Virus record (IMG/VR): IMGVR_UViG_2897333091_000001
DNA: 24,951 nucleotides
Source of the DNA: a virus
Taxonomy: Duplodnaviria > Heunggongvirae > Uroviricota > Caudoviricetes
Direction: 5' to 3' (one strand)
Shown here piece by piece: positions 1,459 to 23,992 of this stretch (its first letter is position 1; each line of letters begins with the position of its first letter). The notes beneath the pieces are model-generated. The model had not been told where the DNA came from. It saw nothing but the letters and a program-made list of their open reading frames with translations, and searched no databases. The translations under genes were made by a program, and so were the position numbers.

Positions 1459-2622
1459 TTACACATCATTAGTACCTTCCTTATTTCTTGACTGGGACAA
1501 ATTTGGGACCGATGGGTTCAGAATCGAGTCTATTTGCCGTGCGTGTTCGGTAAGGTGATTAGGTGCGAGGTGAGCATATCGACGAACCATTTCGATAGAC
1601 TCCCAGCCTCCCATTTCCTGTAACACTGATAACGGGACTCCGGCTTGAACCAGCCAACTTGCCCAGGTGTGTCTCAAGTCGTGAAATCTGAAATCATCAA
1701 TACCTGCTCGTCTCAGCGCCGCTTTCCAGGCTGTGTTTGCGTCATACCGCATCTTCCTGACTGTTGGCGCTTTCGTTCCGTCTGGTTTGGTACAGCTTTC
1801 CTTATACACAAATACCCAACGGTGATGATTCCCGATTTGTTTTTTCAATACGCGACATGCAGTATCATTCAGCGCAACGCCAATTGCGCGGTTTGATTTA
1901 CTCTCTTCCGGGTTTATCCATGCCACCCGGCGCTGCATGTCTATTTGTTGCCATTCAAGGTTGATGATGTTCGAGCGTCTTAAGCCTGTTGCAAGTGCAA
2001 ATTCAACAACAGACTTTAATGGCTCCGGACATTCATCAATCAGCCTTTGTGCTTCATGAGGCTCCAGCCAGCGGATCCGTTTATTCTTTGGTTGAGGCAC
2101 TTTAATAATTGGTGCCTTATCCAGCATTTTCCATTCACGCTCTGCGGCTCTTAGCAGGGCCTTTATAAATGAAAGATGCGTAGCCTTCGTTGCAACGGAC
2201 GCTGGTTTTGGCGTGTATTCTGGAACAGGTTTCCCTTTTTTTCTGCATGCTTCTGCCCTGAGTTTCCAGTTTTCCTCATGACGCCGGTTCGTCATTTTCT
2301 GCATTGCTGAATAAATTTTTGATTCAGTAATGTCTCTTAGTTGCATTCCTGCGAAATGTTGAAGCCAGAATCCGATCCGGCTTTTGTCATCGTCCAGTGA
2401 TTTTTTATGTGCTTTCTCTTCAAGCCACCTGACACACGCTTCCTCGAACGTTATATCAGGAATTTCACCAAGTTTGCTGACCCGCCATGCTTCAGCCTTT
2501 AGCTTGTCATGGAGTTCTGTCGCCTGCCTTTTGTCCTTTGTTCCAAGAGACTGTTTAAATCTTTTACCGTTCGGCAATGTGAAACTGGCGTACCATATTT
2601 CACCTCTGCGGAAGAGTGACAT
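1459..2622 (-). CDS. int: Tyrosine recombinase, phage P22-type integrase
   Basis: 387-aa ORF starting [21 protein letters not shown].. with C-terminal catalytic region ..[40 protein letters not shown] (R..H..R..Y); near-identical to recalled P22 Int; stop lies 14 bp from the tRNA 3' end. Confidence 0.92.
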
Positions 2623-3373: not shown

Positions 3374-3374
3374 C

Positions 3375-3548
3375 GAATACATAAACAGTAAGCAATGGCC
3401 TGGTAAAGCGGCGATTGGTCGCCTGAAAGGTGAGGAACTGGCGCAATATAATTTGTGGCTGGATTATCTGGACGCACTGGAACTGGTCGATACTTCCGGT
3501 ACGCCAGATATTGAATGGCCTACGCCTCCGGCAGTTCAGGCCAGATGA
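3375..3548 (+). CDS. tfa: Tail fibre assembly protein, C-terminal fragment (N-terminus in gap)
   Basis: ..NLWLDYLDALELVDTSGTPDIEWPTPPAVQAR* parallels the C-terminus of the minus-strand Tfa (..LDYIDAVTATDTSTAPDVIWPELPEA*); the two genes converge and overlap at 3520..3548, as in Pin/Gin invertible segments. Confidence 0.6.
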   Translation, partial: EYINSKQWPGKAAIGRLKGEELAQYNLWLDYLDALELVDTSGTPDIEWPTPPAVQAR

Positions 3549-4113
3549 CGTCCGGCGCTGTGCTGGTATCTGTTGCCGTCACCGCGTCAATATAATCCAG
3601 CACAGCGTTAAGTCGGGTGTTTTCTGGCTGCGTCAGCTTCCGCCCGGCCTGTAATTTCAGTTGAATCAGACTGATGGAAGCCATTGCAGCATCAATCAGC
3701 GACTGGCGCTGTGCTTCTGCAGCTTCTACTGCGACGCTATGCTGTGCCTCGGTATCCGTCACCCATTTCTCACCATCCCATTTATCGTATGGCGTTAACG
3801 GTGAAAGCGTGACATAACCGTCTTTGATGGCACCGATATAATCCACTGTAACAGCTGCGCCATTTTCAGTTGAGTAAACGGTCTCATTGCGATGGTCTTC
3901 TTCATGGCTCCATCCCTTACCCGTAAATACTGCCACTTTTCCCGGAATGTTTTCGCCCGGGTCAATACCAGTGGAACAGGCGGGCATACTTACGCCAGTA
4001 TTAATATATTCATCAGACCAGCCGGTATATTCATACGTTACTGCATTATAATAAAAACAACGCATATCGCCCGGCACTGTAGCCAGCCCATTTTCATCAA
4101 AAACAGGCTTCAT
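3520..4113 (-). CDS. tfa: Tail fibre assembly protein (TfaE-like)
   Basis: 197-aa ORF MKPVFDENGLATVPGDMRCFYYNAVTYEYTGWSDEYINTGVSMPACSTGIDPGE.., recognised as the e14/lambdoid Tfa family; start overlaps the stop of the upstream tail-fibre segment. Confidence 0.85.
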   Translation of the reverse strand: MKPVFDENGLATVPGDMRCFYYNAVTYEYTGWSDEYINTGVSMPACSTGIDPGENIPGKVAVFTGKGWSHEEDHRNETVYSTENGAAVTVDYIGAIKDGYVTLSPLTPYDKWDGEKWVTDTEAQHSVAVEAAEAQRQSLIDAAMASISLIQLKLQAGRKLTQPENTRLNAVLDYIDAVTATDTSTAPDVIWPELPEA

Positions 4114-4685
4114 TATTTAGCCCTCACCAGAAAGTTAAATGCAATATTTCGTGGACGGGTTTCTGTACCTACATTTCCACTAATTTCACCATAACGTTTA
4201 ACACTACGAGAGCTAAGAGCTCGTAGTGAGGAAGGCACCTTAAGACCGGGTTCGTCCGTTTTAACTATTCCCCCGTCACCATATGTAGCCAGTATTCCTG
4301 GGTTTACTCCTTCCCGTGCACTTCCTGCGGCAAGCCCGTCCCCCGTCCACAATTCCATATTGTGTGCATGATCCATAATTGTGTGTGATTGCCCTGAAAG
4401 TAGGGTACGTCCGACATCAATCCCGCGCCCATCATCCCAGATACGAATGAAATCACCGCGTGCGTCAGGTAATGCCAGCGCCGGAAACACTTTCGCCAGC
4501 ACAGGGTAATCAGTGGCAGAGAATTTCGCGCCGTTGAACTTCAAAAACACCATACCGGACCAGCTATCGATTACGGTATCTGGCATTGCAGCGGACGGCC
4601 AGAAGAACGGAACGCCAATAGCTGGAGCTCCTTCTCCCAAACCAACGTTTATGAAAATGCAGAAATAACGAGCAAATGGCATCAT
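4113..4685 (-). CDS. stf: Tail fibre C-terminal variable segment inside the invertible region; no independent N-terminus in this orientation
   Basis: 190-codon frame ending directly upstream of tfa; its 5' end runs through the putative crossover site, so it is probably expressed only when fused to a constant tail-fibre N-terminus after inversion; the annotated ATG at 4685 is probably not a real start. Confidence 0.65.
   Translation of the reverse strand: MMPFARYFCIFINVGLGEGAPAIGVPFFWPSAAMPDTVIDSWSGMVFLKFNGAKFSATDYPVLAKVFPALALPDARGDFIRIWDDGRGIDVGRTLLSGQSHTIMDHAHNMELWTGDGLAAGSAREGVNPGILATYGDGGIVKTDEPGLKVPSSLRALSSRSVKRYGEISGNVGTETRPRNIAFNFLVRAK
4632..4657. other. Candidate Pin/Gin-type crossover site (imperfect 26-bp dyad)
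   Basis: TTCTCCCAAACCAACGTTTATGAAAA resembles recalled gix/hix sites (TTCCTGTAAACCGAGGTTTTGGATAA / TTCTTGAAAACCAAGGTTTTTGATAA); 55 bp upstream of pin, at the 5' edge of the stf segment. Confidence 0.5.
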
Positions 4686-4711
4686 TCCTGCTTTTGTCAG
4701 GGGGATCTACC

Positions 4712-5266
4712 ATGCTTATTGGCTATGTACGCGTATCAACAAATGACCAGAACACAGATCTACAACGTAATGCGCTGAACTGTGCAGGATGCGAGCTGAT
4801 TTTTGAAGACAAGATAAGCGGTACAAAGTCCGAAAGGCCTGGACTGAAAAAACTGCTCAGGACATTATCGGCAGGTGATACGCTGGTGGTCTGGAAACTG
4901 GACCGACTGGGGCGCAGTATGCGGCATCTGGTCATTCTGGTTGAGGAGTTGCGCGAACGTGGCGTTAATTTTCGCAGCCTGACGGATGCTATTGATACCA
5001 GCACACCGATGGGGCGTTTTTTCTTTCATGTGATGGGTGCCCTGGCTGAAATGGAACGAGAACTGATTGTTGAACGAACAAAAGCTGGACTGGAAGCTGC
5101 TCGCGCACAGGGACGAATTGGTGGACGTCGTCCCAAACTTACACCAGAACAATGGGCGCAGGCCGGGCGATTAATTGCATCAGGCGTTCCTCGCCAGAAG
5201 GTGGCTATTATTTATGATGTTGGTGTGTCAACTTTGTATAAGAGGTTTCCAGCCAGGGTTATATAA
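4712..5266 (+). CDS. pin: Serine recombinase, DNA invertase Pin (Hin/Gin/Cin family)
   Basis: 184 aa from the ATG at 4712 (MLIGYVRVSTNDQNTDLQRNALN.. with catalytic Ser in YVRVS and C-terminal HTH ..GVSTLYKRFPA); AGGGGGA SD; near-identical to recalled e14 Pin. The upstream extension from 4676 was rejected. Confidence 0.93.
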   Translation: MLIGYVRVSTNDQNTDLQRNALNCAGCELIFEDKISGTKSERPGLKKLLRTLSAGDTLVVWKLDRLGRSMRHLVILVEELRERGVNFRSLTDAIDTSTPMGRFFFHVMGALAEMERELIVERTKAGLEAARAQGRIGGRRPKLTPEQWAQAGRLIASGVPRQKVAIIYDVGVSTLYKRFPARVI

Positions 5267-5390
5267 AACCGCAGACATGTCGTATGCAGGAGGTGTCGCG
5301 GTTGGCTGGTGAACTTTTGATAGTGCGAGTATTGAATGATTTCCAGCCGTTATCGATTTTACGTATTTTTTGCATGAGATGATTTGAACG
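5266..5390 (+). repeat. Direct repeat copy 1 (about 125 bp), begins at the pin stop codon
   Basis: About 90% identical to 8564..8690 by eye (AAACCGCAG..GTCGTATGCA..GGCTGGTGAACTT..GATAGTGCGAGTATTGAATGATTTCCAGCCGTTA.CGATTTTACGTATTTTTTG.ATGAGA). Confidence 0.75.
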
Positions 5391-5622
5391 CCCTAGCACC
5401 AACCGTTCATGATTGCACGCCACTGTCTCTAGAACTGCTATGTGCATGAAGCCGCTGTTCAAACTAAGAATTTATATGGCACTAACAGAAAAATGTTACA
5501 TATATGTTGAGCTTTAACGCAACATAGACATGTTCTATAGTTTGTGTCTCACCACCAGTTGAAAAAAAACGAAAATAGATTAACAATGTTCAGAAGAAAC
5601 CTTCATAATAGAAGAGGTATAA

Positions 5623-5877
5623 ATGGGTAAGATTATTCGGTGGATGCTTTTTTTTGTCGGATTATTTTCCGTTGCATATTCAATATATAAATATCAACAA
5701 TCTCCGCAGAGTTTATTTTACATAATCGGTGCTATAGGAACACTTTTATCTGCTACATGTGGTTTACTTGAGATAAAAAGCAAGAAATCGAATGGCAGTA
5801 TAACTGCTGGTGACAACTCAAATATCGTTGTCATTAATGGTTCAGAAAACACATCAAAAATAAAAAATAGAGGGTGA
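5623..5877 (+). CDS. Small membrane protein (84 aa, two predicted TM helices), function unknown
   Basis: ATG with AGAGG SD 5 nt upstream; hydrophobic stretches WMLFFVGLFSVAYSIY and LFYIIGAIGTLLSATCGLL followed by a polar Ser/Asn-rich tail; very AT-rich; stop sits 2 nt before the next gene's start. Confidence 0.55.
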   Translation: MGKIIRWMLFFVGLFSVAYSIYKYQQSPQSLFYIIGAIGTLLSATCGLLEIKSKKSNGSITAGDNSNIVVINGSENTSKIKNRG

Positions 5878-5879
5878 TT

Positions 5880-6815
5880 ATGTTTGATAAAGAGGTTAAC
5901 TTAGGAGACAACTCAAACGTAGTAAAAACAGAAGGGAATAACAACACAACAATAATAAATAATTTTGATGAGAAGTTTATAGGTCACGTTGTAAGATCCA
6001 TGCTTTATGAAAGTATGCCTTCCTTTCAAGAAGAAGCTAGAAAAAAGATAATTGCGTCAACTGATGAGTACGTTAGAGAGCTAATATCTGAGTTAGTAAT
6101 TCAAAAAACAGATGCAGATACATTAAACCAAAAACTATCAACGCCTGACGTTCAATACTCTCTTTTTGAATCAGCTAAATGTTTTGCAAAGAATCCAGAA
6201 AGAACAGAAAAATCAACTCTGTTAAATTTAGTTGTAAAAAAAATAAATGAATTGGATGGAGATCATGAAGAGCTTTCCTCTATCGATCTGGCAATAAACG
6301 TCGCTACAAAACTTAGCGTAAAGCAAATAAGGTATATAGCTTTAATACACTATATTAAAGATATTGTAAAAATATCACAAGATAGTGCCGGCGCTTATTG
6401 CATAATAGATCCTTCAAAAGATACAACAGAAGAAGTTGACGATTTCTTTTTATTCCCAAATGATATAAAAAGGAACAAACAGGATGTTTATGACCTTTAT
6501 ATCGATCTATATAACAATCAAATGGATGTTGTATTTAAAGATGAAGAGATTGGCCCAATTGATTATAGTATGCTTATAGCGTTGGGTTGTATCATTCAAC
6601 CTGCATTCCCTCAGCCAACATTTGTACAAAATGTAAAGAAAAGAACAGGATTAGATTTAAACGACAGCGAACAAAAATTAAAGCTATCGACATTCATTGA
6701 GAAAATAGAAAAAGCTATAGAGATAGATTCTGTCGATTATATAGTATTAACTACGGTTGGTAGACAAATAGCTAACGCCTATATATCAACAAGAATGAGA
6801 TTAGTTAACTTATAA
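5880..6815 (+). CDS. Hypothetical protein (311 aa from the ATG at 5880), no recognisable family
   Basis: Long ORF in strongly AT-rich DNA; AGAGGG SD 6 nt before the ATG at 5880 (the ORF track starts at GTG 5874); followed by a terminator hairpin; N-terminus shares a GDNSN(I/V)V motif with the tail of the upstream peptide. Confidence 0.65.
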   Translation: MFDKEVNLGDNSNVVKTEGNNNTTIINNFDEKFIGHVVRSMLYESMPSFQEEARKKIIASTDEYVRELISELVIQKTDADTLNQKLSTPDVQYSLFESAKCFAKNPERTEKSTLLNLVVKKINELDGDHEELSSIDLAINVATKLSVKQIRYIALIHYIKDIVKISQDSAGAYCIIDPSKDTTEEVDDFFLFPNDIKRNKQDVYDLYIDLYNNQMDVVFKDEEIGPIDYSMLIALGCIIQPAFPQPTFVQNVKKRTGLDLNDSEQKLKLSTFIEKIEKAIEIDSVDYIVLTTVGRQIANAYISTRMRLVNL

Positions 6816-6836
6816 ATATCTCATATTTCTTCATCC

Positions 6837-6871
6837 AAGGTGGTGGCTTCATCATCCACCGCCTTCTTTTC
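6837..6871 (+). terminator. Rho-independent terminator candidate after the two-gene module
   Basis: AAGGTGGTGG-cttcatcat-CCACCGCCTT stem-loop followed by a T-rich run (CTTTTCT). Confidence 0.5.
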
Positions 6872-7190
6872 TGCTCTTAAGATTAGTGAACAAACCACTC
6901 GTCAGCAAACTCCCAAGTATCTTTCAGAGTCTCCTGAACAAAAGCCTTAGCAGAATCCTTATCTGCGGTGTACGTAACAGTGATGTACGTAACAGGAAAA
7001 TCATCGCTATGGTAGCTTTGACGTTCATCCCCATACCATAAAATATCAAGAGATTACGACTCATTTCCCCATGGCTCTTCACCAACCAACAGTTCTATCA
7101 ACATAAGATGTAAACTCATAAACTAAACAAGATAAAAAAATTAACAGAATTTTGTTGATTTCATGTCTGTGGAGTGTTAACTTAAAATGA

Positions 7191-7210
7191 GACCTGAAGT
7201 ACTGAAGGTC
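7191..7210. promoter_or_regulatory. Imperfect 20-bp palindrome upstream of the XRE gene (candidate operator)
   Basis: GACCTGAAGTACTGAAGGTC (16/20 self-complementary) located 24 bp upstream of the XRE start codon. Confidence 0.4.
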
Positions 7211-7233
7211 TTTGACACACTGGAGAAGCAACT

Positions 7234-7593
7234 ATGTTAACGCCGTTTGGTAAGACAGTAAGAAAAATGCGCATAGACTTAGGGCTTACGCTTAAAAGCA
7301 TGGCTGAGGCTATGGGCATGACCTCGTCTTATCTTTCAGCGATCGAAACTGGTAAAAGGGCAGTCACTAAGCCCGTGCTTGATAGCATCATTAGCTATTT
7401 TAATGCGGATGAAAAACAAAAAGAAAAGCTTATCAGTGCAGCTCGTGACTCTCAGCAGTCAGTAGAGATCAGCTTGTCAGGTAAGAATGGCCACGCTCGT
7501 GAAGTCGCAATTGCGTTCGCTCGTAGTTTTGATGAATTAAATGAAGAAGACTTCCGTAATTTACGACAGATTTTGAATCGAAAACAGCAGTAG
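7234..7593 (+). CDS. XRE-family helix-turn-helix transcriptional regulator
   Basis: 119 aa; N-terminal HTH signature ..LGLTLKSMAEAMGMTSSYLSAIETGKRAVTKPVLDSI..; GGAGA SD; immediately followed by the metallopeptidase gene. Confidence 0.8.
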   Translation: MLTPFGKTVRKMRIDLGLTLKSMAEAMGMTSSYLSAIETGKRAVTKPVLDSIISYFNADEKQKEKLISAARDSQQSVEISLSGKNGHAREVAIAFARSFDELNEEDFRNLRQILNRKQQ

Positions 7594-7601
7594 GAGGCGG
7601 C

Positions 7602-8123
7602 TTGAGCGGACAAGATTATCGTGTACCTCCGCAGAATCGTGAATCAATACGTTCGATCGTCACATCTCTGCGGAGCGCATTTGGTATTACTGGGCTTAAA
7701 TTCCCTGTAATGGAGGTAATTGAGTTCGCATTGCCTCAGTTGATCCCGGATTTTGAGTTCCACATTGGTGGTATGAAAGAAATGGGAGAAACGCATGGTC
7801 TTACGTACCCACAGGAACATTTATTGATTCTGCGCGAAGACATTTACGAAGGCGCTTTGAATGGGGTAGGGCGAGATAGGATGACTGCCGCACATGAATT
7901 GGGTCATCTTCTTATGCACAGGAACATCGCATTTGCTCGTTCTGCCCCAGGGGTAAAAATCCGCCCTTTTGAGAGTAGTGAATGGCAAGCTAAATGTTTT
8001 AGTGGTGAGTTATTAGTGCCAGCTATGCATGCCAGTGTTTTAAAAGGTATGACGGCTGAGGATGTTGCTAAGGCATGCGGAGTTTCATTAGTGGCAGCGC
8101 GTTATCAGCTAGACAGAATGTAA
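7602..8123 (+). CDS. ImmA/IrrE-family (DUF955-like) zinc metallopeptidase domain protein
   Basis: 173 aa with HExxH motif (AAHELGHLLMH); TTG start 4 nt after an AGGAGG that overlaps the XRE stop, so the exact start is uncertain; gene pairing is typical of ImmR/ImmA or CapH/CapP regulator pairs. Confidence 0.78.
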   Translation: MSGQDYRVPPQNRESIRSIVTSLRSAFGITGLKFPVMEVIEFALPQLIPDFEFHIGGMKEMGETHGLTYPQEHLLILREDIYEGALNGVGRDRMTAAHELGHLLMHRNIAFARSAPGVKIRPFESSEWQAKCFSGELLVPAMHASVLKGMTAEDVAKACGVSLVAARYQLDRM

Positions 8124-8126
8124 AAA

Positions 8127-8162
8127 CCCCTTGCTTGGCGCCAACCAGTGCAAGGGGCTTTA
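8127..8162 (+). terminator. Hairpin terminator candidate (weak U tract)
   Basis: CCCCTTGC-15 nt-GCAAGGGG stem directly after the peptidase stop, followed by CTTTA. Confidence 0.4.
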
Positions 8163-8280
8163 GGTGATGAATCCAAGAGGCATCACCACCGTGAACAGCT
8201 TCGATAGACAGCCTGAAATTAACACCTTCAGGGAAGATGTTCAAGGGAAAAATCTCTCTTGGTAAGGAGGTGTTTTATGA

Positions 8281-8430
8281 ATGGGTTTGAAATCAATTGC
8301 TTCAAAAGCGGCGCCCAAAGGGTTCCGTTGGGTTTTCTGCCGTTACCGCAAGGTGCGTGGGAAATCAAAAAAAGTCCTTGATGCTCATGATTACGGGTAC
8401 GAGGCGTGGGCATTTTTAGTGCGCTGCTAA
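8281..8430 (+). CDS. Small basic ORF (49 aa), hypothetical
   Basis: Strong AAGGAGG SD (8264..8270); ATG at 8281 (alternative ATG at 8277 gives a 34-aa product in another frame); MGLKSIASKAAPKGFRWVFCRYRKVRGKSKK..; ends 15 bp before a strong terminator. Confidence 0.35.
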   Translation: MGLKSIASKAAPKGFRWVFCRYRKVRGKSKKVLDAHDYGYEAWAFLVRC

Positions 8431-8444
8431 GGGTTAGTATTTAA

Positions 8445-8466
8445 GGCACCTGCGGGTGCCTTTTTT
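8445..8466 (+). terminator. Rho-independent terminator
   Basis: GGCACC-tgcg-GGTGCC stem-loop followed by TTTTTT. Confidence 0.65.
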
Positions 8467-8563
8467 GTATCCTCTGACCCGATTGGTGTCTTGCTGAGCC
8501 TGATAACTACCAATTTTTGTTATTACTATTCTACTATCGCTCAATCATGATTGGCGGGAGTTG

Positions 8564-8690
8564 AAACCGCAGGCTCGTCGTATGCAAGAACGTGCTGCGG
8601 CTGGCTGGTGAACTTCCGATAGTGCGAGTATTGAATGATTTCCAGCCGTTACCGATTTTACGTATTTTTTGTATGAGAGGATTTACACCT
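8564..8690 (+). repeat. Direct repeat copy 2 (about 125 bp)
   Basis: Aligns along its length with 5266..5390, differing by scattered substitutions. Confidence 0.75.
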
Positions 8691-8930
8691 CCTCCCACCG
8701 ATCCTCCATGACTTTACGTCACTAAATTTTAACAGAGCCGGGAGCACTGCCGGAGCCTGCCTAATCATAATTCGCCCCCAAACTGGACGTACAGCGCTTT
8801 GTGTCCAGGTAGTGGGAAAATGAAGAAAGGACTGTCTGCCAGCAGTTCTGCGACCGCACCGGGCGCAGAGTATGCCAGCAGATTTCCGACTGGCCGCGCA
8901 GCTGCGATGGCACATCTGTCAGCAGGACGA

Positions 8931-9009
8931 AAAGTACTGAATGGTAGCGGCCAAACGGTGGTTTGAAAATGACCGGGCGACACGGTATTACGGGACTTTT
9001 ACAGTACTG
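8931..9009. repeat. 79-bp repeat unit A with AGTACTG terminal inverted repeats
   Basis: AAAGTACTGAATGGTAGCGGCCAAACGGT...GGCGACACGGTATTACGGGACTTTTACAGTACTG; near-identical copy at 9321..9397. Confidence 0.7.
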
Positions 9010-9320
9010 ATAATGAGGAAATGTATATGTATCAGCTTATAAAACTATATGGCGGGCAGATGGCCCCAAATCCATCCGAATACCGAATTTTGTTTCAGGG
9101 CAATTATCTCGCCGCTATATGGATTTATGCTTAGAGTAACAACCATGTAAATAATTGATAATTATAGATTGTTTAGCATGGTTCGCACTCTGAAATGCCG
9201 GGTGCGAGGTTTGGCGAAGATGGCCGATATTCGAGTGTTTTGCTCTTATATCGACGAAATAAGACAGGCGTGGCGGGATTTTTTCTGCGATTCCTGGGAA
9301 AAAAATGAATAAAAACAGTG

Positions 9321-9397
9321 AAAGTACTGAATGGTAGCGGCCAAACGGTACATAAAATGTCCGGGCGACACGGTATTACGGGACTTTTACAGTACTG
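9321..9397. repeat. 77-bp repeat unit B (copy of unit A)
   Basis: Same ends and core as 8931..9009, with a short divergent middle (GGTTTGAAAATGA vs ACATAAAATGT). Confidence 0.7.
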
Positions 9398-9733
9398 GTT
9401 ATGTGTAAAGATGCCAGCTGCGGGCCGTGTTCACCGGCGCACCGAGCGTAAAGTATGCCAGCAGATTTCAGGCTTGCCGCGCAGCTGCAGCATGCGGAAT
9501 GCCAGCACTGGACAGAATCACTGCACCGTCTATGAACTGGCGCCCCTTCATGCCCTGACCGGAGAGGCTTGGATGTACTCATGGAAGACAAAATGCCTAT
9601 TAATGAGGTAAGTATGCAAATTGAGTTAGGGCGAATGAGTGGGAAATAAAAATTACATATGTAGTGATTGCAAACCTGCTACATGAAGGTAACTGCAAAA
9701 AGCATATTACCTTCCTTGTAGCTATAGATAAGG

Positions 9734-11104
9734 TTATTTCTCTTTCTCAGGCAAAACGCGGTCTATAATTTCTTTATTAATTTTAGATGTCGTATTAATC
9801 AATTCGTTTATTTTATCAATTTCCATTTGATGTGACTTCTTGTCTATGGAGCTAAGCGGTGATCTTAATACTGATTTAAGAATGTTATCCATGAATAATG
9901 ATGATTTATCGGTATCGTTCTTATTGATTTCCTGCTTGAAAGATACAAGAGTTTCAGATAGCAATTTTTTATGTGCATAATCTTCACTGATGTTGTTTTG
10001 TTTAACATATTGTATGGCGCTAAATACAAAGAAGCCTATTAATACTGGAATCATTGAGAATCGAGCAAAGAATAATAATAATAAGTTGGGCTCTTGGCCT
10101 GTAGGAGGATAAGAACTAACTTCATTCATCTTGACAAGCATATAAACCACGAATGCTATACATACGATTGCAGCTCCTATTGATACAAAGGCCCAAAACC
10201 TTTTGTTTTTATTTGCGGTTTTGTATGCATCTCTAAAATGTCTTGATAGCCTATATGTTCCAGATAAATTCAATGCGGAATTAGCTTTAGAGTTCAATTC
10301 TTTCGCATTATTTATTTCACCAGATATAATGGTTTTTAATTCTTTAATTTCAGTTTTTTTATCAAGGAGATTTTTAATCTCACTGGCAGACTCAGCAGAT
10401 TTTTTAATGATTTCGTCTTGCATTGATTTGTTTGTATTAACGATATTGTTTAATGTTTCTTCAACAGTTCTTAGCTTTTCACTAGATGATTCTATACCAA
10501 TAAGTGCATCTCTGCTCTTTTTTAGTATGAATTCTATTTCAGAACCGGCGCTTTCAAATTTTTTCGTCTCGGCGTTCAAGTCCGTAACAAGTTTAATGAT
10601 TTTATCATGAGAGTTTGCATTTCTTACTGCTAACTCTCTGATTTGAGTTGCACTTATTTCAATTTCATTTTTCAGTTCTACCACTTTGGCTATTTCATTA
10701 GATGCTTGATTTTTGAACATAGCTAAGGTGTTAGGTTGATTATGCGTGCCTTGGATAAACTTAGATATTCTTGAATACCTAATTAAATCATCATTGATAG
10801 TGATAATGTTCCGATAAATATCATCTGAAAAAATATCAGAAATCATAGATGATATGTAGTTGTCCGTAAGTTTTAGTAGTGAAAAGATATTTTCTTTTTC
10901 TTCTTTTGTAAAGAATTCAGCATGTGCGAAAGGATGGAATTTATTGATTATGGAAATATGTTCGGACATATTTCCCAAAAGTTTGCTTCTTCTGTTGGCA
11001 ACGGTTATGTATTTAGGGTCACTTATGCTTTTTAGCATTCTTATGATTTTTTCAAAATTACCAAAAATAGATGCTGTGGTTGATGAAAATTCATTCAGAG
11101 TCAT
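9734..11104 (-). CDS. Orphan 456-aa protein: long helical/coiled-coil-like N-terminal region, two predicted TM helices, about 90-aa C-terminal tail; function unknown
   Basis: Uninterrupted ORF in very AT-rich DNA; K/E/I/N-rich N-terminal 290 aa; hydrophobic segments FWAFVSIGAAIVCIAFVVYMLV and LLLLFFARFSMIPVLIGFFVFSAIQYV; no neighbouring partner gene on the same strand. Confidence 0.7.
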   Translation of the reverse strand: MTLNEFSSTTASIFGNFEKIIRMLKSISDPKYITVANRRSKLLGNMSEHISIINKFHPFAHAEFFTKEEKENIFSLLKLTDNYISSMISDIFSDDIYRNIITINDDLIRYSRISKFIQGTHNQPNTLAMFKNQASNEIAKVVELKNEIEISATQIRELAVRNANSHDKIIKLVTDLNAETKKFESAGSEIEFILKKSRDALIGIESSSEKLRTVEETLNNIVNTNKSMQDEIIKKSAESASEIKNLLDKKTEIKELKTIISGEINNAKELNSKANSALNLSGTYRLSRHFRDAYKTANKNKRFWAFVSIGAAIVCIAFVVYMLVKMNEVSSYPPTGQEPNLLLLFFARFSMIPVLIGFFVFSAIQYVKQNNISEDYAHKKLLSETLVSFKQEINKNDTDKSSLFMDNILKSVLRSPLSSIDKKSHQMEIDKINELINTTSKINKEIIDRVLPEKEK

Positions 11105-12087
11105 ACTTTATCCATTTAGAAGTTGTGTATTGCAGTGTGTATTACAAAATGTTTGAAAGAAAAACATTTTGAGGAAAAACACTCTGATAATCAAGGAAGT
11201 ATTTTCAAGAGGTTGCATGGTGATCCATTATCCTTCTTCGCCAGCGGGGGATTAACCCCAGTCATGGCTTTCCGGTTAACCGGATATCATTGGGTTCAAT
11301 GCAGTACAAAAAATTGCCCGAAGCAACACTGAAATACCCTGTCACTCACCACACGTACCGCAGGCGACCCTGCCGGTGAGCCATTCTGATTGCGCAGTCT
11401 GTCCGGCGAGCCACTAACTCACTGGAAGAGAAAACAACATATGGCCGCGCAGCGGCGCGGGGATGCCCCTCGCAGGAAAAGTGAGTGACTACCCCGTCGA
11501 CGGCATTCAGCGCCTCACACAGCTGAAAACGGGACCGGTATACGGGCTGGCTAAAACAGGTCTGTTCATACCACGCTCCCCCCTGCCGAACGGGAACGCA
11601 CACTGTTCAACATCGCCCGTATCGATGTCATGTGTTCCGTCACGCATTCTGCCGATGCCAGCGCTGAGACTCGTCTTTCAGGAGGGGCCGCTGCAGGCCG
11701 AGATATGCGGTTGCCCGTCCCTTGCCCTTTTCAGCATTGACAACATCCAGCCTGTCGGGAGCTGCCGCATTGGGTTAGACCTGTGTAAGTCGATGCTAAC
11801 GTCTAACCATTTAACTTCCGCTTGTTGCTCATAACAGGCATTCACTTCAGTTACGGCAGAAAGGTATGCATGCTGGGTGGGGAAAGTGTGAAGGAAAAGA
11901 AGACTGCTGCGCCGTTTGTCGTCACGTTTATCTTCATTGGCTATGCAAGTCGTAATACAAGGTGGGACAAAACTGAGACACATAAGGCCTCGCAATGGCT
12001 TGCAAGGCTTTACATGTTTTGATGTGGTGGGACGTGTGAGCGCAGTGTTGATGGGGTAATGCTTTGAATTAGAAGCGGATTCTTATA

Positions 12088-12133
12088 ATTCGTAATGCGA
12101 AGGTCGTAGGTTCGACTCCTATTATCGGCACCA
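12088..12133 (+). repeat. Perfect 46-bp direct copy of the thrW 3' end (att core; right junction of element 1, left junction of element 2)
   Basis: ATTCGTAATGCGAAGGTCGTAGGTTCGACTCCTATTATCGGCACCA is identical to 1399..1444; flanks diverge immediately after one additional T. Confidence 0.9.
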
Positions 12134-12295
12134 TCTCAACTTCCCCAAACGTCCGTATTCATCCATAAGCACCCTGATTTATAACGATTTTACCGCTTTT
12201 TAGTCCGTCGTTGTCCGTGACCATCCAGTAGAATCCGATACAGAATGTGTATAGGATTGTGTATATGTTCCTGTTCGGTCTTGGAGCCTATACAC

Positions 12296-13471
12296 ATGCC
12301 TTTAAACGATATGCAGATTCGCCGCGCTAAGCCTGAAGATAAACCCTATACGCTTGGGGATGGGCAAGGCTTGTCATTGCTTATAGAACCTAATGGAAGC
12401 AAGAGCTGGCGGTTCCGCTATCGCTACGCCGGTAAACCCAAGATGATCTCGCTTGGCGTTTACCCAACGATCACCCTTGCCGATGCTCGTTCCCGTCGTG
12501 ATGAAGCTCGAAAACTTGTGGCAGAAGGAAAGAACCCTAGTGAGGTTCGAAAAGAGCAAAAGCTGGCTCTGCAAACAGAGTCAGAGAACGCCTTCGAAAA
12601 GATCGCCAGAGAGTGGCATCAACTTAAATCTGCTAAATGGTCAGCTGGATACGCATCAGACATCATGGAAGCGTTTAAGAACGACATTTTTCCTTATGTT
12701 GGAACAAGGCCTGTGGGAGAGATTAAACCGCTAGAGCTGCTGAACGTACTGCGTAAAATTGAGAAACGTGGTGCGTTGGAGAAAATGCGTAAAGTGCGGC
12801 AGCGTTGCTCCGAGGTGTTTCGCTACGCAATTGCAACAGGTAGGGCGGAGTACAATCCTGCTGCGGATCTCTCCAGCGCTCTCGAAGTGCATCAATCCAA
12901 TCATTTCCCGTTCTTAAAAGCTGATGAGATACCCGAATTTCTGCGTGCCTTAGAGAGTTACACCGGGAGTAAAATTGTCCAGATAGCAACGAAATTACTG
13001 ATGATTACGGGCGTGAGAACCATCGAATTACGCGCGGCATTATGGCAAGAATTTGATCTGGATAACGCTATTTGGGAAATTCCTGCTGAAAGGATGAAAA
13101 TGCGCAGGCCGCATCTTGTGCCATTGTCTACTCAGGCGTTAGATTTACTCAATGAACTCAAGACAATGACAGGCAACTATCGTTATGTTTTTCCTGGGCG
13201 AAATGATCCGAGTAAGCCAATGAGTGAGGCCGCTATCAATCAGCTTATAAAGCGACTTGGATACGGTGGCAGGCTTACAGGTCATGGATTTAGGCATATG
13301 ATGTCAACTATTTTACATGATGCTGGCTTTAATTCTCAATATATTGAATTACAGCTCGCTCACGTTGATAGTAATAGAATTCGCGGTACATATAATCATG
13401 CAACATTCATTGAAGAAAGAAGGAAAATGTTGAACTTTTTCTCTTCAACGTTATTTTTAAGGAAAATGTAA
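12296..13471 (+). CDS. int: Tyrosine recombinase, P4-type integrase
   Basis: 391 aa from the ATG at 12296 (MPLNDMQIRRAKPEDKPYTLGDGQGLSLLIEPNGSKSWRFRYRYAGK.. arm-binding N-terminus; C-terminal ..HGFRHMMSTILHDAGF..LAHVDSNRIRGTYNHA); sits next to the tRNA-derived att copy. Confidence 0.88.
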   Translation: MPLNDMQIRRAKPEDKPYTLGDGQGLSLLIEPNGSKSWRFRYRYAGKPKMISLGVYPTITLADARSRRDEARKLVAEGKNPSEVRKEQKLALQTESENAFEKIAREWHQLKSAKWSAGYASDIMEAFKNDIFPYVGTRPVGEIKPLELLNVLRKIEKRGALEKMRKVRQRCSEVFRYAIATGRAEYNPAADLSSALEVHQSNHFPFLKADEIPEFLRALESYTGSKIVQIATKLLMITGVRTIELRAALWQEFDLDNAIWEIPAERMKMRRPHLVPLSTQALDLLNELKTMTGNYRYVFPGRNDPSKPMSEAAINQLIKRLGYGGRLTGHGFRHMMSTILHDAGFNSQYIELQLAHVDSNRIRGTYNHATFIEERRKMLNFFSSTLFLRKM

Positions 13472-15288
13472 ATGAGAATTGAAACTGTTTATATTAAAGG
13501 ATTCAGGAATTACTGTGATGCTGTTATTAATTTTAATGAAACTAATTTGATTATAGGTGCAAATGATGTTGGAAAGACCAACCTATTATATGCCATTCGA
13601 TTATTACTTGATAAAAGTTTATCTGAATTAGATCTAGAACNNNNNNNNNNNNNNNNNNNNNNNNNNNNNNNNNNNNNNNNNNNNNNNNNNNNNNNNNNNN
13701 NNNNNNNNNNNNNNNNNNNNNNNNNNNNNNNNNNNNNNNNGAATTAGATCTAGAACCAAAAAGCAATGACTTTCATGTAAATTCGACAGGTGAACAGGTT
13801 GAAAATATAGAAATCACTATCAAGTTTACAGATGTTAGTGAAGATGCTGTAATATCTAAATTAGGAGGGTATGTTAGCGATGAAGGGGAAACATACATTA
13901 AGTATCTTGCTTCATCATTAACTATGGATTACAAGATATTACTTAGTCATGAACATAACAATTTTGATGAGGTTCCTAATAGATTTTACTTAAAGTGTTT
14001 AAGTCTAAGGTATATAAATTCGCAAAGAGATCTTGAAAAATACATTAAAATTGAAAAGAAGCATCTTTTAAGATTGGCGCAAGAAGTTCGTAGTGAAAAG
14101 GATACTGAAAATGATGGGGCGGTTTTTACTGAATTAAATAAGCTACTTACTGAAGTAAATGAAAAAGTTAAAGGAATAAGTTATGTTGCATCAGCAACAG
14201 AAGAGCTTAACGAGGAACTTAGAAAGTTATCCTATACTCATGATAGATTAACTGTTCAACTTGATACTGGTGCAATAGGGATTGACCAGTTTATAGAGAA
14301 ATTAGAATTAAGTGCGAATACAAATGGGAAGAAACTAATGCTTGGTGGCGATGGGTTTAATAACCAAATCCTTCTTGCGTTATGGAAAGCAAAAAGTGTT
14401 CGCGAGCATGATGTTGAAAGTGAAGTAGTGATCTATTGTATAGAGGAACCGGAAGCACATCTATTTCCTCACCAGCAAAGAAAATTGGCGGCCTATTTAA
14501 TCGATAAACTTCCAGGCCAAGCAATCGTTACAAGCCACTCACCCCAAATTGCAGTGAATTTTAAACCTGATTCAATCATAAAACTATACTATGATGATGG
14601 AGAGACTCTAGCCGCAAGTAATGGATGTTCTGATTGTATTAGCTCTGCATGGGATGGAATGGGCTACCGGATGAGTATTATTCCTGCTGAGGCATTTTTT
14701 GCTAACGTGGTTTTTTTGGTCGAGGGACCATCTGAGGTGATTTTTTACACTGAATTAGCAAAAGCATTAAGTATTGATCTTGATTATTATAACATCAGCA
14801 TTCTTTCTGTTGATGGTATCCAATTTGAAGTTTATAGAAAAATATTAACAGCTCTAAATATTAATTGGATCGTAAGAACAGACAATGATGCTTCAAAAGT
14901 ACCTCATAAGAATGAATGGCAATATGCTGGTGTAAATAGGGCGTTAGCACTGTGTGGAGAGAATAAAGAACCAAACTCAAGTATTCCTATAGATAGTAAA
15001 GCTTTGCATACTAAGTGGGGAACCATTTCACCAATAATAAATCCTAACGGCGTTTATATATCTTTTTTTGATCTTGAAGGAGATCTTGCTAATGACTTTT
15101 CGAAGCATGTTCTTGATTATGCAAGTAAGGATAATCTAGATGATGCCGCTGATTATTTGAGAGGAAAAAAAGCTATACGTATGCGTGAGTTAATTAAAGA
15201 GAAAAAAGCTTTTTTAACTGAACTGAAGAGCAAAGATATAGCCAGACCTCTAATACATGCACTGAAAATTGCTAGAGGTGAATTATGA
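13472..15288 (+). CDS. gajA: Gabija GajA-like OLD-family ATPase/Toprim endonuclease (interrupted by scaffold gap 13641..13740)
   Basis: N-terminus ..IKGFRNY..NLIIGANDVGKTNLLYAIRLLLDK (P-loop), later VIYCIEEPEAHLFPHQQRKL (Walker-B-like) and VVFLVEGPSEVIFY..IVRTDNDASK (Toprim), matching recalled GajA blocks; frame stays open from 13741 to 15288; starts directly after the int stop. Confidence 0.85.
13641..13740. other. Scaffold gap (100 N); flanks share a 16-bp overlap
   Basis: GAATTAGATCTAGAAC occurs at 13625..13640 and again at 13741..13756, in the gajA reading frame (ELDLE) on both sides. Confidence 0.9.
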
Positions 15289-16907
15289 AGCTAACTAAGG
15301 AACAGTTAGATGCAATTGATTACGAAGGTAATCTGGTTATAACTGCATGCCCAGGAAGTGGTAAAACAACAATACTCGTCCATAAGATTGCTGCCTGTTT
15401 ATCCCATTCCAAGGATTATCAGGGAGTTGTTGCGTTATCATATACGAATAAATCCAGCGAGGAGCTAAAAGCCAGATGTAGAAAATTGGGAGCAGAGTTA
15501 AATTCTAGCTTCTTTGGTACTATTGATAAGTTTTTCATTAACGAAATAATATTACCTTTTGTAAGGCAAGTATGGGGCAGAAACGAAAGCGCTCTCGAAG
15601 TAGTAAAGTATATAGATCTTTCTCAAGAATTAAAAGATAAGACAAATAAGTACTTTGACCGAGTGGATTTTTATTCTAATACTTCATTTGAGGGCATGGG
15701 TTCTCTGAGGGATATTTATTTAAAGGGGATGTTGATTTTAGACTTCCTTCCTCACTTGGCTTTTTATATAGTTAGAACATCATATTCTTGTCAGCGGTAT
15801 TTAATGGCAAAGTATATTGGTTTTTTTGTCGATGAGTATCAGGATACCGGTTATTTTACTCATCAGGTTTTCAAGTTCATACCAACGCTAGGGATGCCTC
15901 TTATTATCGTTGGTGATTTGGATCAATCAATTTATTTGTATTCTCACCGCAGTTCGGATTCACTAAAAGATTTCATGAATGATAGTGGTTTCTGTCATAA
16001 GGAAATTACAGTAAATCACAGATGTCACCCATCTATAGTAAATTACGCCAATAGAATTAAAGATTTTGAATGTCAACTAGCTCCGTGTGATGAGATTTTT
16101 GTTTATAGAAAATGTGTTGATGGCAATCAAATTGATATAGCTAAATGGATTGGTGAAATTCTTGATAATGTAAAAAATAAATTTTCAATATCTGATAATA
16201 AGGAGATTGCTATATTGGTAAGAAGCAATGCTTGCGCGGAGCTAGTTTCTGATAATTTAGTTGTTTCTAATAGGGCTTATTTGGATAATGATTTAACAAA
16301 GGCTGGTGGTAAGGTTTCTGGTCTTGTTAATGATTTATTATGTTACAGGTATAACTTAAATAAAACTGCTCAGTCTATTTTGGAGGGGGTTTTGGGAAGC
16401 AGTGTCAAAAGGAGCGAGGCTACTCGTATCCGTAAGGCTATTAAGCAGGTTAGAAGTGTTACAGATGCCTTTCTTATTGACGTAATAAATAAAATTGTAG
16501 TAACTCTTTTAGGGACTGAAATCGAGCAGCATCATAAGTCCGCTCTTTCAGAGATATTAGTTACTCCGAGGATGCAAAATAATTATTTGGATGTTAGAAG
16601 TGATGAAGTACAAATAATGACGTTACATAAGTCTAAAGGTCTTGAGTTTGACTTTGTTTTTCATTTGGATCTGTATGATTGGATTTTGCCTAAAAGAGTT
16701 TTCATAGAAGGAAGCTATGATGTTGTATTCGAAAATGAACAGCAATGCATAAATCTTCATTACGTAGGAATTACACGAGCAAGAAAAGGCATTATGCTAA
16801 TGCATTCTACGAAACGGTATAATGGTTCAGGTGATCTTAAGAACGGGGCTCCATCTCAATTTCTTTTGAAACCTGGGTTAGATGGCCTTTATAAAAAAAT
16901 AAATTAA
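15285..16907 (+). CDS. gajB: Gabija GajB-like UvrD/PcrA-type SF1 helicase
   Basis: 540 aa; LDAIDYEGNLVITACPGSGKTTILVHKI (motif I), FFVDEYQDTGY (motif II), LIIVGDLDQSIY, VNHRC, MTLHKSKGLEFDFVF (motif V/VI-like), matching recalled GajB blocks; 4-nt ATGA overlap with gajA. Confidence 0.88.
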   Translation: MKLTKEQLDAIDYEGNLVITACPGSGKTTILVHKIAACLSHSKDYQGVVALSYTNKSSEELKARCRKLGAELNSSFFGTIDKFFINEIILPFVRQVWGRNESALEVVKYIDLSQELKDKTNKYFDRVDFYSNTSFEGMGSLRDIYLKGMLILDFLPHLAFYIVRTSYSCQRYLMAKYIGFFVDEYQDTGYFTHQVFKFIPTLGMPLIIVGDLDQSIYLYSHRSSDSLKDFMNDSGFCHKEITVNHRCHPSIVNYANRIKDFECQLAPCDEIFVYRKCVDGNQIDIAKWIGEILDNVKNKFSISDNKEIAILVRSNACAELVSDNLVVSNRAYLDNDLTKAGGKVSGLVNDLLCYRYNLNKTAQSILEGVLGSSVKRSEATRIRKAIKQVRSVTDAFLIDVINKIVVTLLGTEIEQHHKSALSEILVTPRMQNNYLDVRSDEVQIMTLHKSKGLEFDFVFHLDLYDWILPKRVFIEGSYDVVFENEQQCINLHYVGITRARKGIMLMHSTKRYNGSGDLKNGAPSQFLLKPGLDGLYKKIN

Positions 16908-16924
16908 AAATTACTTGGCGCGCA

Positions 16925-16943
16925 ATGCTCTCCCCGCCACGCC
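16925..16943 (-). other. cos-like site resembling P2/186-family 19-nt cohesive-end sequence
   Basis: Reverse complement GGCGTGGCGGGGAGAGCAT is one mismatch from the 186-type and three from the P2/P4-type cohesive end as I recall them; lies between the cargo and psu, where P4 carries cos. Confidence 0.5.
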
Positions 16944-17044
16944 CGCCCGCTTTGTGGGGCGGTTTTAATGCAGTTGTACTGTCACGCTCAGGCTGCGCCG
17001 GGAATGGCGCGGTCTGCAGAAAATGAGGCAGGGAAACGCATGCA

Positions 17045-17077
17045 AAGCCATGCACCTTATCGATGCATGGCTTTTTT
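17045..17077 (+). terminator. Rho-independent terminator between gajB and psu
   Basis: AAGCCATGCA-ccttatcga-TGCATGGCTT stem-loop followed by TTTTTT; an A-run on the other side allows bidirectional function. Confidence 0.6.
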
Positions 17078-17107
17078 CAGTAAAAACAGGCGGATTTTCG
17101 GGGAATT

Positions 17108-17680
17108 TTACACAGACTGACGTGATGCCAGTTGCGCACTTTTACGCGAAAAAATCATGTTCTGCGCAGGGGTGAATTTTTCACGGCTGTCATCCACCGA
17201 AGCCGCGTCAGGCCTGAATCCGATGGTCGTTAAAATGTCGCTATCCTGTGCGGAATAATTAATTTTTTCCCCCTTCGCAAGCCAGGACAGAAGGGCTTCA
17301 CGCAGGGCATCTGTGGCACGCTGAATGGCACAGTTTCGGGCAATGACCGTCAGCTCACTGTAGCCCATCAGCTCCGGTGCCAGTGCCGCCGCCAGTGCTG
17401 TGCCGTGCTGCTGCATAAAATCATTCAGCCGGTCGCGGATGCTGATGTGCTGAACGGCTTCATGCGAACGAATATAACGACCGGCGGCCTGATTCACCTG
17501 CCATTTTCTGACTTCGATAATATTGCGTAATTCGTCCAGGCGACTGACGTTTCTGCCTTCTCCTGACAGAAGCCGCAGGTATTCCTGTTCGGCCGCTGCC
17601 AGCTCATTTTTGCGTTGCAGCCATGCTGCTTTGTTATTCTGACAGGTGTCAAAGGCCTGCTGTAAGGCTGTGCTTTCCAT
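17108..17680 (-). CDS. psu: P4 Psu-like polarity suppression / capsid decoration protein
   Basis: 190 aa MESTALQQAFDTCQNNKAAWLQRKNELAAAEQEYLRLL.., same length and near-identical to recalled P4 Psu; last gene of the sid-delta-psu operon. Confidence 0.88.
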   Translation of the reverse strand: MESTALQQAFDTCQNNKAAWLQRKNELAAAEQEYLRLLSGEGRNVSRLDELRNIIEVRKWQVNQAAGRYIRSHEAVQHISIRDRLNDFMQQHGTALAAALAPELMGYSELTVIARNCAIQRATDALREALLSWLAKGEKINYSAQDSDILTTIGFRPDAASVDDSREKFTPAQNMIFSRKSAQLASRQSV

Positions 17681-17753
17681 CGTTATCTCTTTCTCATCAT
17701 GCTGAAGAATAAAAATACGGTGTGCGGCGACGGCCGGTGTTAACCGACAGCCC

Positions 17754-18254
17754 TCATTCCAGACGCAGCGAATATGATTGTGTTTTTAACCGTACTGGCG
17801 GCAGTTCCTGTTTTTCATGCAGGCTTTCTGCCAGTTCGTCCGGTGTGACCGGGCGGACAATGAAACGGTTGATGGTCTGAAGCGTTTTAAACACCAGACC
17901 ACAGCCCGGATCCGTGCACACATAAAAACGCTCGGTGACTTCCTGAGACAGACGCCGCGATGTTCTTGACAGTGCAAGGCCTTTACATCTCCGACAACAA
18001 TATCCGGTAACAAGCATTCTTTTCGGGCGTTTCATACTGCCGGAGGCTGACGTCAGTGAATCGCGATATCTCTGTTTGCCTGAAATGTATTCCATTCCTG
18101 AATCTTTACAGTCAGAGAAAAAGCTTTCACTCGCTTCAAATGTCGCAGAGCAATAAATATTCCGGCACTGTGCAATCATTATCTTGGTGCCATCGTCCAT
18201 GAAATGTGCGCGACGGGTGTGAGCAACATGTCCACACGACGGGCAGTAAATCAT
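17754..18254 (-). CDS. delta: P4 Delta-like late transcription activator (two tandem Ogr-type zinc-finger units)
   Basis: 166 aa; MIYCPSCGHVAHTRRAHFMDDGTKIMIAQCRNIYCSATF.. and a second unit ..YCCRRCKGLALSRTSRRLSQEVTERFYVCTDPGCGLVF..; ATGA overlap with the sid stop. Confidence 0.88.
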   Translation of the reverse strand: MIYCPSCGHVAHTRRAHFMDDGTKIMIAQCRNIYCSATFEASESFFSDCKDSGMEYISGKQRYRDSLTSASGSMKRPKRMLVTGYCCRRCKGLALSRTSRRLSQEVTERFYVCTDPGCGLVFKTLQTINRFIVRPVTPDELAESLHEKQELPPVRLKTQSYSLRLE

Positions 18255-18985: not shown

Positions 18986-19057
18986 TTTCCGGCTCCTCGT
19001 CACTTCAGGTTAAGAAAATTGTGACGTACACCGGACAACAACACGACGCATTGCAGA

Positions 19058-23966: not shown

Positions 23967-23992
23967 TCCCGACATCCCCCGAAGGTAAACAA

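Follow-up and report, generated by a model that had tools for sequence, protein, structure and literature searches.

Why does a prophage remnant carry two direct copies of a non-coding repeat around a short run of accessory genes, the first copy starting at the very end of a gene? The question is raised by virus record IMGVR_UViG_2897333091_000001 (Caudoviricetes), of which 24,951 nt were analysed; this whole stretch is called the window, and L-numbers denote the related loci compared with it. The two copies, R1 and R2, lie to the right of pin (4676..5266, plus strand), which encodes a serine DNA invertase with the Pfam domains Resolvase and HTH_7 and is annotated as pinE in related genomes. 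An original prediction, made from the sequence by eye, had suggested two readings of the repeats: marks of a recombination hotspot where cassettes are exchanged or accreted in tandem, or a duplicated 3' untranslated region (UTR) or regulatory element of pin. The element that they represent, here called R, is in our judgement probably a portable terminator and boundary element, and R1 and R2 are probably scars of the joining of cargo blocks by homologous recombination within this shared element.

Two direct copies of one element

The repeat pair was recovered both by MAFFT alignment and by a repeat search, in which it formed the top family. Between 5266-5390 and 8564-8690, 109 of 127 positions agree; the similarity reported earlier is thus confirmed, at 85.8% identity, slightly below the figure of about 90% first given. 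Identity reaches 87.8% across the universal core (5266-5362 and 8564-8661) and 82.5%, with one 1-nt indel, across the full detectable homology (5266-5424 and 8564-8723). The 60 nt flanking each side of the copies give 44-51% in forced global alignment, which amounts to no similarity. The direct repeats at these positions are real. Copy 1 does start at the pin stop codon, as had been noticed: homology begins at the last base of the TAA (5264-5266), and the stop codon adjoins the A-run of R1. The longest exact stretch shared by the copies is 34 bp (GATAGTGCGAGTATTGAATGATTTCCAGCCGTTA), far beyond chance for a 25-kb window, and could permit loss of the 3.3-kb interval.

According to the alignments and folding, R1 occupies 5266..5447 on the minus strand, with hairpin 1 at 5267-5303, hairpin 2 at 5304-5348 and a class B extension at 5363-5447 following the core. 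R2 occupies 8564..8723, also on the minus strand, with hairpin 1 at 8565-8602, hairpin 2 at 8603-8647 and a class B extension to about 8712-8723. A covariance model of the family scores R1 at 112 bits and R2 at 131 bits.

Cargo blocks and their junctions

From left to right, the locus consists of pin and R1, a small open reading frame (ORF) with an LPO_1073 family gene (block A), a dinI 3' fragment, a helix-turn-helix (HTH) gene with an ImmA gene (block B), R2 and block C. Blocks were assigned by BLAST against four annotated relatives. Because the blocks have different closest prophages, to which each is 97-98% identical, the interval between R1 and R2 is not one module. The four-gene module that the repeats had been thought to enclose consists instead of two unrelated blocks, split by a 99-bp 3' fragment of a dinI-like gene, recognized by translation (6882-6980, minus strand). 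Window positions 4632-6980 share 97.2% identity with L001, a prophage that sits at prfC and reads pin, R, small ORF, LPO_1073, dinI and attR, and positions 4631-6815 are 99.5% identical to the metagenomic contig L027. Positions 6883-8663 are 98.4% identical to L004, in which a dinI fragment, HTH, ImmA, R, dinI and attR follow one another. For positions 8595-12011 the identity is 98.1% to L128, in which tail fibre genes, a single R and block C succeed one another in a lambdoid prophage at ssrA. Homology to L001 stops at 6980 and homology to L004 starts at 6882-6883; the A/B junction lies in the dinI fragment and the B/C junction inside R2.

The same conclusion can be refined at the level of single nucleotides. 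R1 matches L002 at 38/38 and 46/46 positions (84/84) up to 5349, through which the L027 copy is also identical, and from 5350 it matches L001 at 97/98 and 153/153 positions. R2 matches L004 at 264/264, 38/39 and 49/49 positions up to 8651 (87/88 in the core) and L128 at 45/47 and 174/177 positions from 8677. These position-by-position matches indicate that the nearest relative changes at the same place in R1 and R2, namely where hairpin 2 ends on the right. Exchange or accretion of cargo at a recombination hotspot therefore fits the locus well, as the relatives differ on either side of each copy and the switch falls inside the repeat.

A mechanism can be proposed on this basis. R, about 100 nt long and carried by lambdoid and e14-like Escherichia prophages, would mark the place where the rightward tail operon, with tfa or pin as its last gene, meets the leftward accessory "b region". 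Read on the minus strand, R most often follows a dinI-like gene that carries a LexA box, and in lambda it lies downstream of ea59-ea31. Because R is often the sole sequence common to prophages with unrelated cargo, homologous crossovers, mediated by host RecA or by phage recombinases, would occur in it and would swap or stack cargo. The window may then be the product of at least two joins. One would have linked an L001-like end (pin, R, small ORF, LPO_1073, dinI) to an L004-like block (truncated dinI, HTH, ImmA, R) within the dinI 3' end, and the other would have linked the L004-like block to an L128-like block (R and block C) within R, with two direct R copies left as scars. The analysis shows the mosaic breakpoints, the distribution of R, its covarying structure and, at the K-12 copy, 3' ends formed in vivo. 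We infer that recombination in R made this arrangement, and we likewise infer the order of events and the continued activity of R1 and R2 as terminators.

Two other origins of the pair can be weighed against the same alignments. A local tandem duplication within the strain would produce copies in direct orientation only 3.3 kb apart, as is the case here, but is very improbable: the copies are just 86% identical to each other, whereas R1 is 100% identical to the L027 and L002 copies and R2 equals L004 at 87/88 core positions to 8651 and is 98.8% identical to it over 8500-8663. The unrelated flanks of R1 and R2 also argue against duplication. Similarly little speaks for the view that mobile cassettes are delimited by R acting in site-specific recombination, as an attC-like site or a target of Pin or an integrase. 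A structured repeat does bracket cargo next to a recombinase gene, and TTATATAAAACC across the pin stop presumably resembles a gix/hix half-site. However, there is no more than a half-site, placed in the variable left flank, pin is absent from the surroundings of most R copies, and the flanks on either side vary independently. No terminal inverted repeats were found by the repeat search. Homologous rather than site-specific recombination is favoured because one junction of the locus lies in the dinI fragment and not in R, the cargo blocks contain no recombinase, and neither inverted repeats nor target duplications were seen.

Anatomy and gene context of R

The anatomy of R was derived from a sample of 120 copies from viral contigs together with E. 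coli loci; continuations were counted in 138 copies. Conservation is limited to approximately 100 nt (5266-5362 in the window), with sharp edges on both sides. On the plus strand, the order is an A-rich run at the stop codon of the preceding gene, hairpin 1, hairpin 2 and then GTTAYCGATTTTAC. Hairpin 1 (CCGCAG-CACGT ... ACGTG-CTGCGG) exists in many compensatory variants, hairpin 2 (GGCTGG ... CCAGCC) has a conserved 33-nt loop, and GATTTTAC follows hairpin 2 in the universal core. Beyond the core there are at least eight distinct right-hand continuations. The commonest is the stop codon of a minus-strand dinI-like gene (65/138 copies), and the 85-nt class B extension occurs in 22/138 copies, including R1, R2 and lambda.

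Among the 120 viral-contig copies, the left neighbour is tfa in 23 and pin in 20, and in the rest it is one of various genes whose stop codon lies at the A-run; the right neighbour is a minus-strand dinI in 60. The promoter of the dinI-like gene, which lies upstream of R on the minus strand, has a LexA box (TACTGTATACAAACACAGTA). Nearly all combinations of left context, hairpin-1 type and right continuation were seen in 93 distinct copies. In L004, the Prokaryotic Genome Annotation Pipeline (PGAP) labels a DinI-like pseudogene, and R was accordingly considered as a dinI gene fragment. This candidate was rejected: the label belongs to the sequence found at 6882-6980 in the window, and R follows the dinI stop codon.

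For a covariation test, 106 copies were realigned to the covariance model. Changes on both sides were found in 12 of 17 pairs, and 92% of cells were paired compared with 26-41% when the partners were slid by 1-3 columns; none of 500 shuffles reached the observed values. As the alignment was itself fitted to the model, this test leans towards structure. Helix 2, a stable G+C-rich hairpin that selection has kept, has 11 pairs, of which nine are changed on both sides, with 91% of cells paired. When hairpin-1 variants were folded alone, nearly all of the 64 folded, with a mean of -14.7 kcal/mol.

A coding role was also tried and rejected, and we give it hardly any credence. Minus-strand ORFs of 38-67 aa run through the copies, for example at 5259-5462(-) and 8534-8698(-), and a coding sequence with an annotated ribosome-binding site in lambda imm21, as well as a 63-aa hypothetical protein in some lambda records, would agree with a small protein. 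Against this, the 1-nt indel between R1 and R2 breaks the frame, the ATG is ATA in R2 and L002, and the length and end of the ORF depend on the left flank. Hairpin-1 variants change length and sequence and keep base pairing.

Polarity and transcription of R

Read on the minus strand, R in dinI loci presents a stop codon, 60 conserved nt, a hairpin and a U-run, at which homology among dinI-selected loci stops. The U-run follows hairpin 1 on the minus strand only, and there is none on the plus strand. At least five U in the next 8 nt are found in 29/64 hairpin-1 variants; R1 has UUUUAUAU (5259-5266) and R2 just the weak run UUUCAACU (8557-8564). The most plausible role for the minus strand of R is that of a 3' UTR ending in an intrinsic (Rho-independent) terminator, located at the 3' end of leftward accessory units and next to the end of the tail operon. 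A bidirectional terminator was rejected, as the plus strand has no U-run.

Transcript ends agree with this polarity. The entries consulted in Supplementary file 1 of Adams et al. 2021 (PMC7815308), a Term-seq catalogue, include orphan 3' ends at K-12 1632571(+) and 1632574(+). Both fall in the U-run just after the hairpin of the R copy in the Qin prophage, in ...GTGTGTCTGCGGTTTTTCAAC, in the minus orientation of R. The ends within GUCUGCGGUUUUUCAAC are listed three times in this file, which has three growth-condition sheets, one entry being for LB at an optical density (OD) of 0.4. Among the same entries there is no 3' end on the opposite strand at the Qin copy. This copy (L131 2467-2579, K-12 1632466-1632578) is an orphan without an annotated gene or small RNA (sRNA). 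By eye, a promoter-like site, TTGCAT-N17-TAAGTT, can be seen approximately 190 nt upstream of it.

These data bear on the idea that R, on the plus strand, serves pin as a 3' UTR or as a regulatory element and was copied along with part of that locus. R1 does start at the pin stop, 20 of the 120 sampled copies follow pin, and two hairpins form as well when the plus strand is folded (-37.5 kcal/mol, z -2.7). However, no U-run follows either plus-strand hairpin, no pin sequence precedes R2, pinE of K-12 has no R after it, and most copies follow other genes, other left neighbours being as frequent as pin. Because the terminator polarity and the Term-seq 3' ends, in the entries consulted on the opposite strand only, point away from the pin strand, R is not taken to be a pin 3' UTR, and this part of the original prediction is very unlikely to be correct.

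A more serious alternative is that the minus strand of R is primarily a trans-acting, 3'-UTR-derived sRNA from the mRNAs of SOS-induced prophage dinI-like genes, and that the hairpin-2 loop serves as the seed. In its favour, R comes immediately behind the dinI stop and has a U-tailed terminator hairpin at its end. A precedent exists in Klebsiella, where DinR is an Hfq-dependent sRNA processed from the dinI 3' end (PMC10907235). Conservation of the 60 nt upstream of the terminator exceeds that of the fourfold-degenerate sites of dinI, these 60 nt are kept where dinI is gone, and the K-12 Qin copy has an orphan transcript 3' end in the Term-seq entries consulted. [quoted passage not shown] A search for an EHEC sRNA (EcOnc) record at R likewise found none. 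Pairing with the ftsZ translation start was unsupportive, with ftsZ ranked 34/44 for the dinI-type copy, and duplex energies were uninformative. The excess of conservation is just about two-fold. A position at the dinI 3' end is a property of the family that R1 and R2, without an intact dinI, do not share, and neither has an upstream gene or an evident promoter. Given the conserved leader and the DinR precedent on one side and the ftsZ, Rfam and Hfq negatives on the other, the sRNA idea is kept as a minority possibility. It is compatible with a role of R as terminator and junction, and could be an additional function. In a broader and equally speculative form, R would be a prophage regulatory-RNA family, cotranscribed with SOS-induced dinI-like genes or, if orphaned as in K-12 Qin, driven by its own promoter. 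Such an RNA would end at hairpin 1, act through its loop (AAAUCAUUCAAUACUCGCACUAUCG) on host or phage targets, and double as a recombination anchor.

Several points weigh against the interpretation of R as a terminator and junction element that shaped this locus. With regard to termination, no intact leftward gene lies directly upstream of R1 or R2, their U-runs (UUUUAUAU and UUUCAACU) are short, and a simple terminator scan called neither copy; for these reasons, present terminator activity of R1 and R2 stays predicted. Transcript evidence comes from one diverged copy, K-12 Qin, with modest read counts in the Term-seq entries consulted. A plain terminator does not account for the conserved leader of about 60 nt with its hairpin-2 part. 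In dinI-selected loci, the terminator hairpin has a nucleotide diversity (pi) of 0.243 and the fourfold-degenerate sites of dinI one of 0.116, compared with 0.057 in the hairpin-2 region; the latter is thus just about twice as conserved as the fourfold sites, which indicates modest selection. With regard to recombination, positions 8652-8676 of R2 match neither L004 nor L128 perfectly, and the donors compared are the nearest available relatives, not the true parents. Breakpoints at the edge are expected wherever unrelated flanks meet a conserved segment; a junction in R is shown, not a preferred initiation of recombination there.

With the terminator and boundary element still the preferred interpretation, the two copies may differ in their present role. 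Judging from gene order, R2 could act as terminator for the leftward 456-aa gene in block C, and R1 is probably a relic, without an intact leftward gene.

Distribution of R and the prophage cargo slot

Megablast with R1 gave hits at 4,891 places, spread over 3,042 (56%) of the 5,426 complete E. coli genomes, with a median of one and a maximum of seven R per genome. Nearly all are chromosomal, and none is annotated. The earlier concern that the repeat might be a common genome-wide element unrelated to this locus is therefore half justified: R is common, but it is tied to the boundary between tail genes and accessory genes. R also occurs in 196 phage records, comprising lambda, its relatives and Stx phages. 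A 27-nt stretch of the core was matched exactly in Escherichia and Shigella only, among GTDB species representatives. K-12 has a near-complete R at the left end of Qin and a partial one in Rac; in its e14 prophage, no R follows pinE and mcrA comes directly after the gene. The whole arrangement at 4600-9700 was found in no complete E. coli genome. Rfam 15 covariance models gave no match in the window at the gathering threshold and, at E<=10 on 5150-5550, a chance snoRNA match only. A literature search for the R sequence string gave no match. R thus appears to be unannotated and unnamed so far.

The right-hand side of the cargo slot is also anchored. A segment at 11813-12087 (to 12139 with attR) is 93-97% identical in prophages with different cargo (L002, L142, L054, L055 and others). 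The search for alternative cargo suggested by the original prediction was productive: in other strains, the same thrW remnant has between pin-R and the anchor (11813-12134) a TrlF-family ATPase (ACN002), an ATP-dependent nuclease (3359) or Avs2 (B2C). Together with the window, these strains show the same flanks around different cargo, as expected of a cargo hotspot. Single-copy arrangements, which had likewise been proposed as a check, are present in L128, L002 and L142, and cargo between two direct R copies is also found in L073/L198, L044 and L055.

Lambda (NC_001416, L005) shows a comparable layout. Its full R (24162-24334, 82.7% identity) lies between ea47 and ea31, and the anchor is 84% identical to lambda 27317-27464, just left of attP; from this likeness, R and the anchor bracket ea31-ea59 there. 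A second copy, consisting of terminator hairpin 1 alone, is located at 22560-22666 between tfa and ea47, so that ea47 is bracketed by direct hairpin copies.

Comparison with known systems

The modular and mosaic theory of lambdoid genomes, with boundary "linker" sequences and moron slots, is reportedly due to Susskind and Botstein, Juhala et al. in 2000 and Clark et al. in 2001. Like those linkers and slots, R is a short conserved non-coding boundary segment with unrelated genes on either side and mosaic breakpoints in it, and its accessory genes gather beside tail genes and an att site. Unlike the linkers, it has a two-hairpin structure supported by covariation and a defined polarity, and no earlier name for it was found in Rfam or by sequence-text search.

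Hotspots of defence systems in P2 and P4 are said to have been described by Rousset et al. in 2022. The R slot resembles them as a fixed prophage position with interchangeable anti-phage cargo, since relatives here carry Avs2, an ATP-dependent nuclease, a TrlF ATPase or McrA. The P2 and P4 hotspots are anchored by core phage genes, whereas the R slot has short stretches of non-coding sequence as its anchors, R to the left and 11813-12087 to the right. Integron attC sites, like R, are structured repeats that separate successive cassettes in one orientation. R, however, has no dedicated integrase, and its junctions are neither confined to R nor placed at a fixed nucleotide. R copies share sequence identity (80-100%) and not structure alone, unlike attC, which fits homologous better than site-specific recombination.

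Two RNA systems are also similar in part. DinR of Klebsiella (PMC10907235) likewise lies directly downstream of a LexA-controlled dinI and includes a Rho-independent terminator. It belongs to the chromosomal dinI and has a Klebsiella-specific pairing stretch, whereas R belongs to Escherichia prophage dinI-like genes and often occurs without dinI. Unlike DinR, R has no convincing ftsZ complementarity and is known here from sequence and 3' ends. In lambdoid prophages of EHEC, the PR' moron site carries the convergent sRNA genes of AgvB and AsxR (Tree et al. 2014, PMC4104026). Like R, these are related short transcribed elements with conserved 3' terminators, found in many prophages at a slot for cargo such as stx. 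They differ from R in that their slot lies downstream of Q/PR' and not at the tail end, and they have other sequences, mapped promoters and demonstrated Hfq binding.

As a practical consequence, R, which the covariance model detects at 85-137 bits, can serve as a searchable landmark for the left edge of the accessory and defence slot in lambdoid and e14-like E. coli prophages. The locus shows at nucleotide resolution how cargo from prophages at different att sites (thrW, prfC and ssrA) is stacked. Being widespread, structured, transcribed, apparently unannotated and present in lambda itself, R is a candidate for a directed RNA experiment. The repeat is accounted for without a new mobile-cassette mechanism, and in this respect the result is fairly ordinary.

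Cargo genes and setting of the locus

Block A (5623..6815, plus strand) consists of an 84-aa ORF (5623-5877) and a gene for a 313-aa protein (5874-6815) of the LPO_1073/Vpar_1526 family (NCBIfam NF045477, 5.5e-24). It is AT-rich (G+C content 30-34%), with a promoter-like site ahead of it at 5580-5609. Block B (7234..8467, plus strand) encodes an XRE-type HTH protein (7234-7593) and an ImmA/IrrE M78 peptidase (7602-8123), both assigned by Pfam. The HTH/M78 pair matches the PADLOC models of the CapH/CapP regulators (E 4e-10 and 6e-11), and in L004 it adjoins a reverse transcriptase/SLATT locus interrupted by IS1. The remainder of block B contains a 61-aa minus-strand ORF in the spacer (8228-8413) and a plus-strand terminator-like hairpin called by the terminator scan (8443-8467).

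Block C (8724..12011, minus strand) is transcribed towards R2 and includes the AT-rich 456-aa ORF (9734-11104, minus strand). This ORF belongs to no family, gives weak coiled-coil-like matches (SMC, DruC and ZorA, E 1e-3 to 1e-5) and was found in two complete E. coli genomes only; from its sequence it could be an uncharacterised accessory or defence gene. Between R2 and this gene, two pairs of short direct repeats stand in swapped order at 8855-9488 (8855-8905/9438-9488, 88%; 8966-9021/9354-9409, 91%), both shared with L128.

The window starts with proA (1-1254), which together with its neighbours is 98-99% identical to E. coli, followed by the tRNA-Thr gene thrW (1369-1444, tRNA scan). The pin locus is part of a 10.7-kb prophage remnant between two 52-nt duplicates of the thrW end found by the repeat search: attL (1399-1450), a duplicate of the tRNA-Thr 3' end, and attR (12088-12139), a tRNA-Thr 3' fragment. 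The remnant contains an integrase (1459-2622, minus strand), an excisionase-like gene, an invertible tail-fibre segment, pin and the run of accessory genes. Its tail-fibre/tfa segment (3374-4650) is reversed in L001 (3374-3801 corresponds to L001 4765-4338) and has the same orientation in L002, which is consistent with Pin-mediated inversion.

Beyond attR, a second mobile element (12245-20148) is arranged in tandem at the duplicated thrW end. It carries an integrase (12245-13471), a complete Gabija system (GajA 13924-15288 and GajB 15285-16907; PADLOC E 1e-234 and 1e-224) and P4-type isrK/C4 antisense RNAs (19863-20148). From these features, it looks like a P4-like satellite that carries a defence system. 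In the satellite region, a 120-nt direct repeat with 180-nt spacing and 79% identity lies at 23979-24278.

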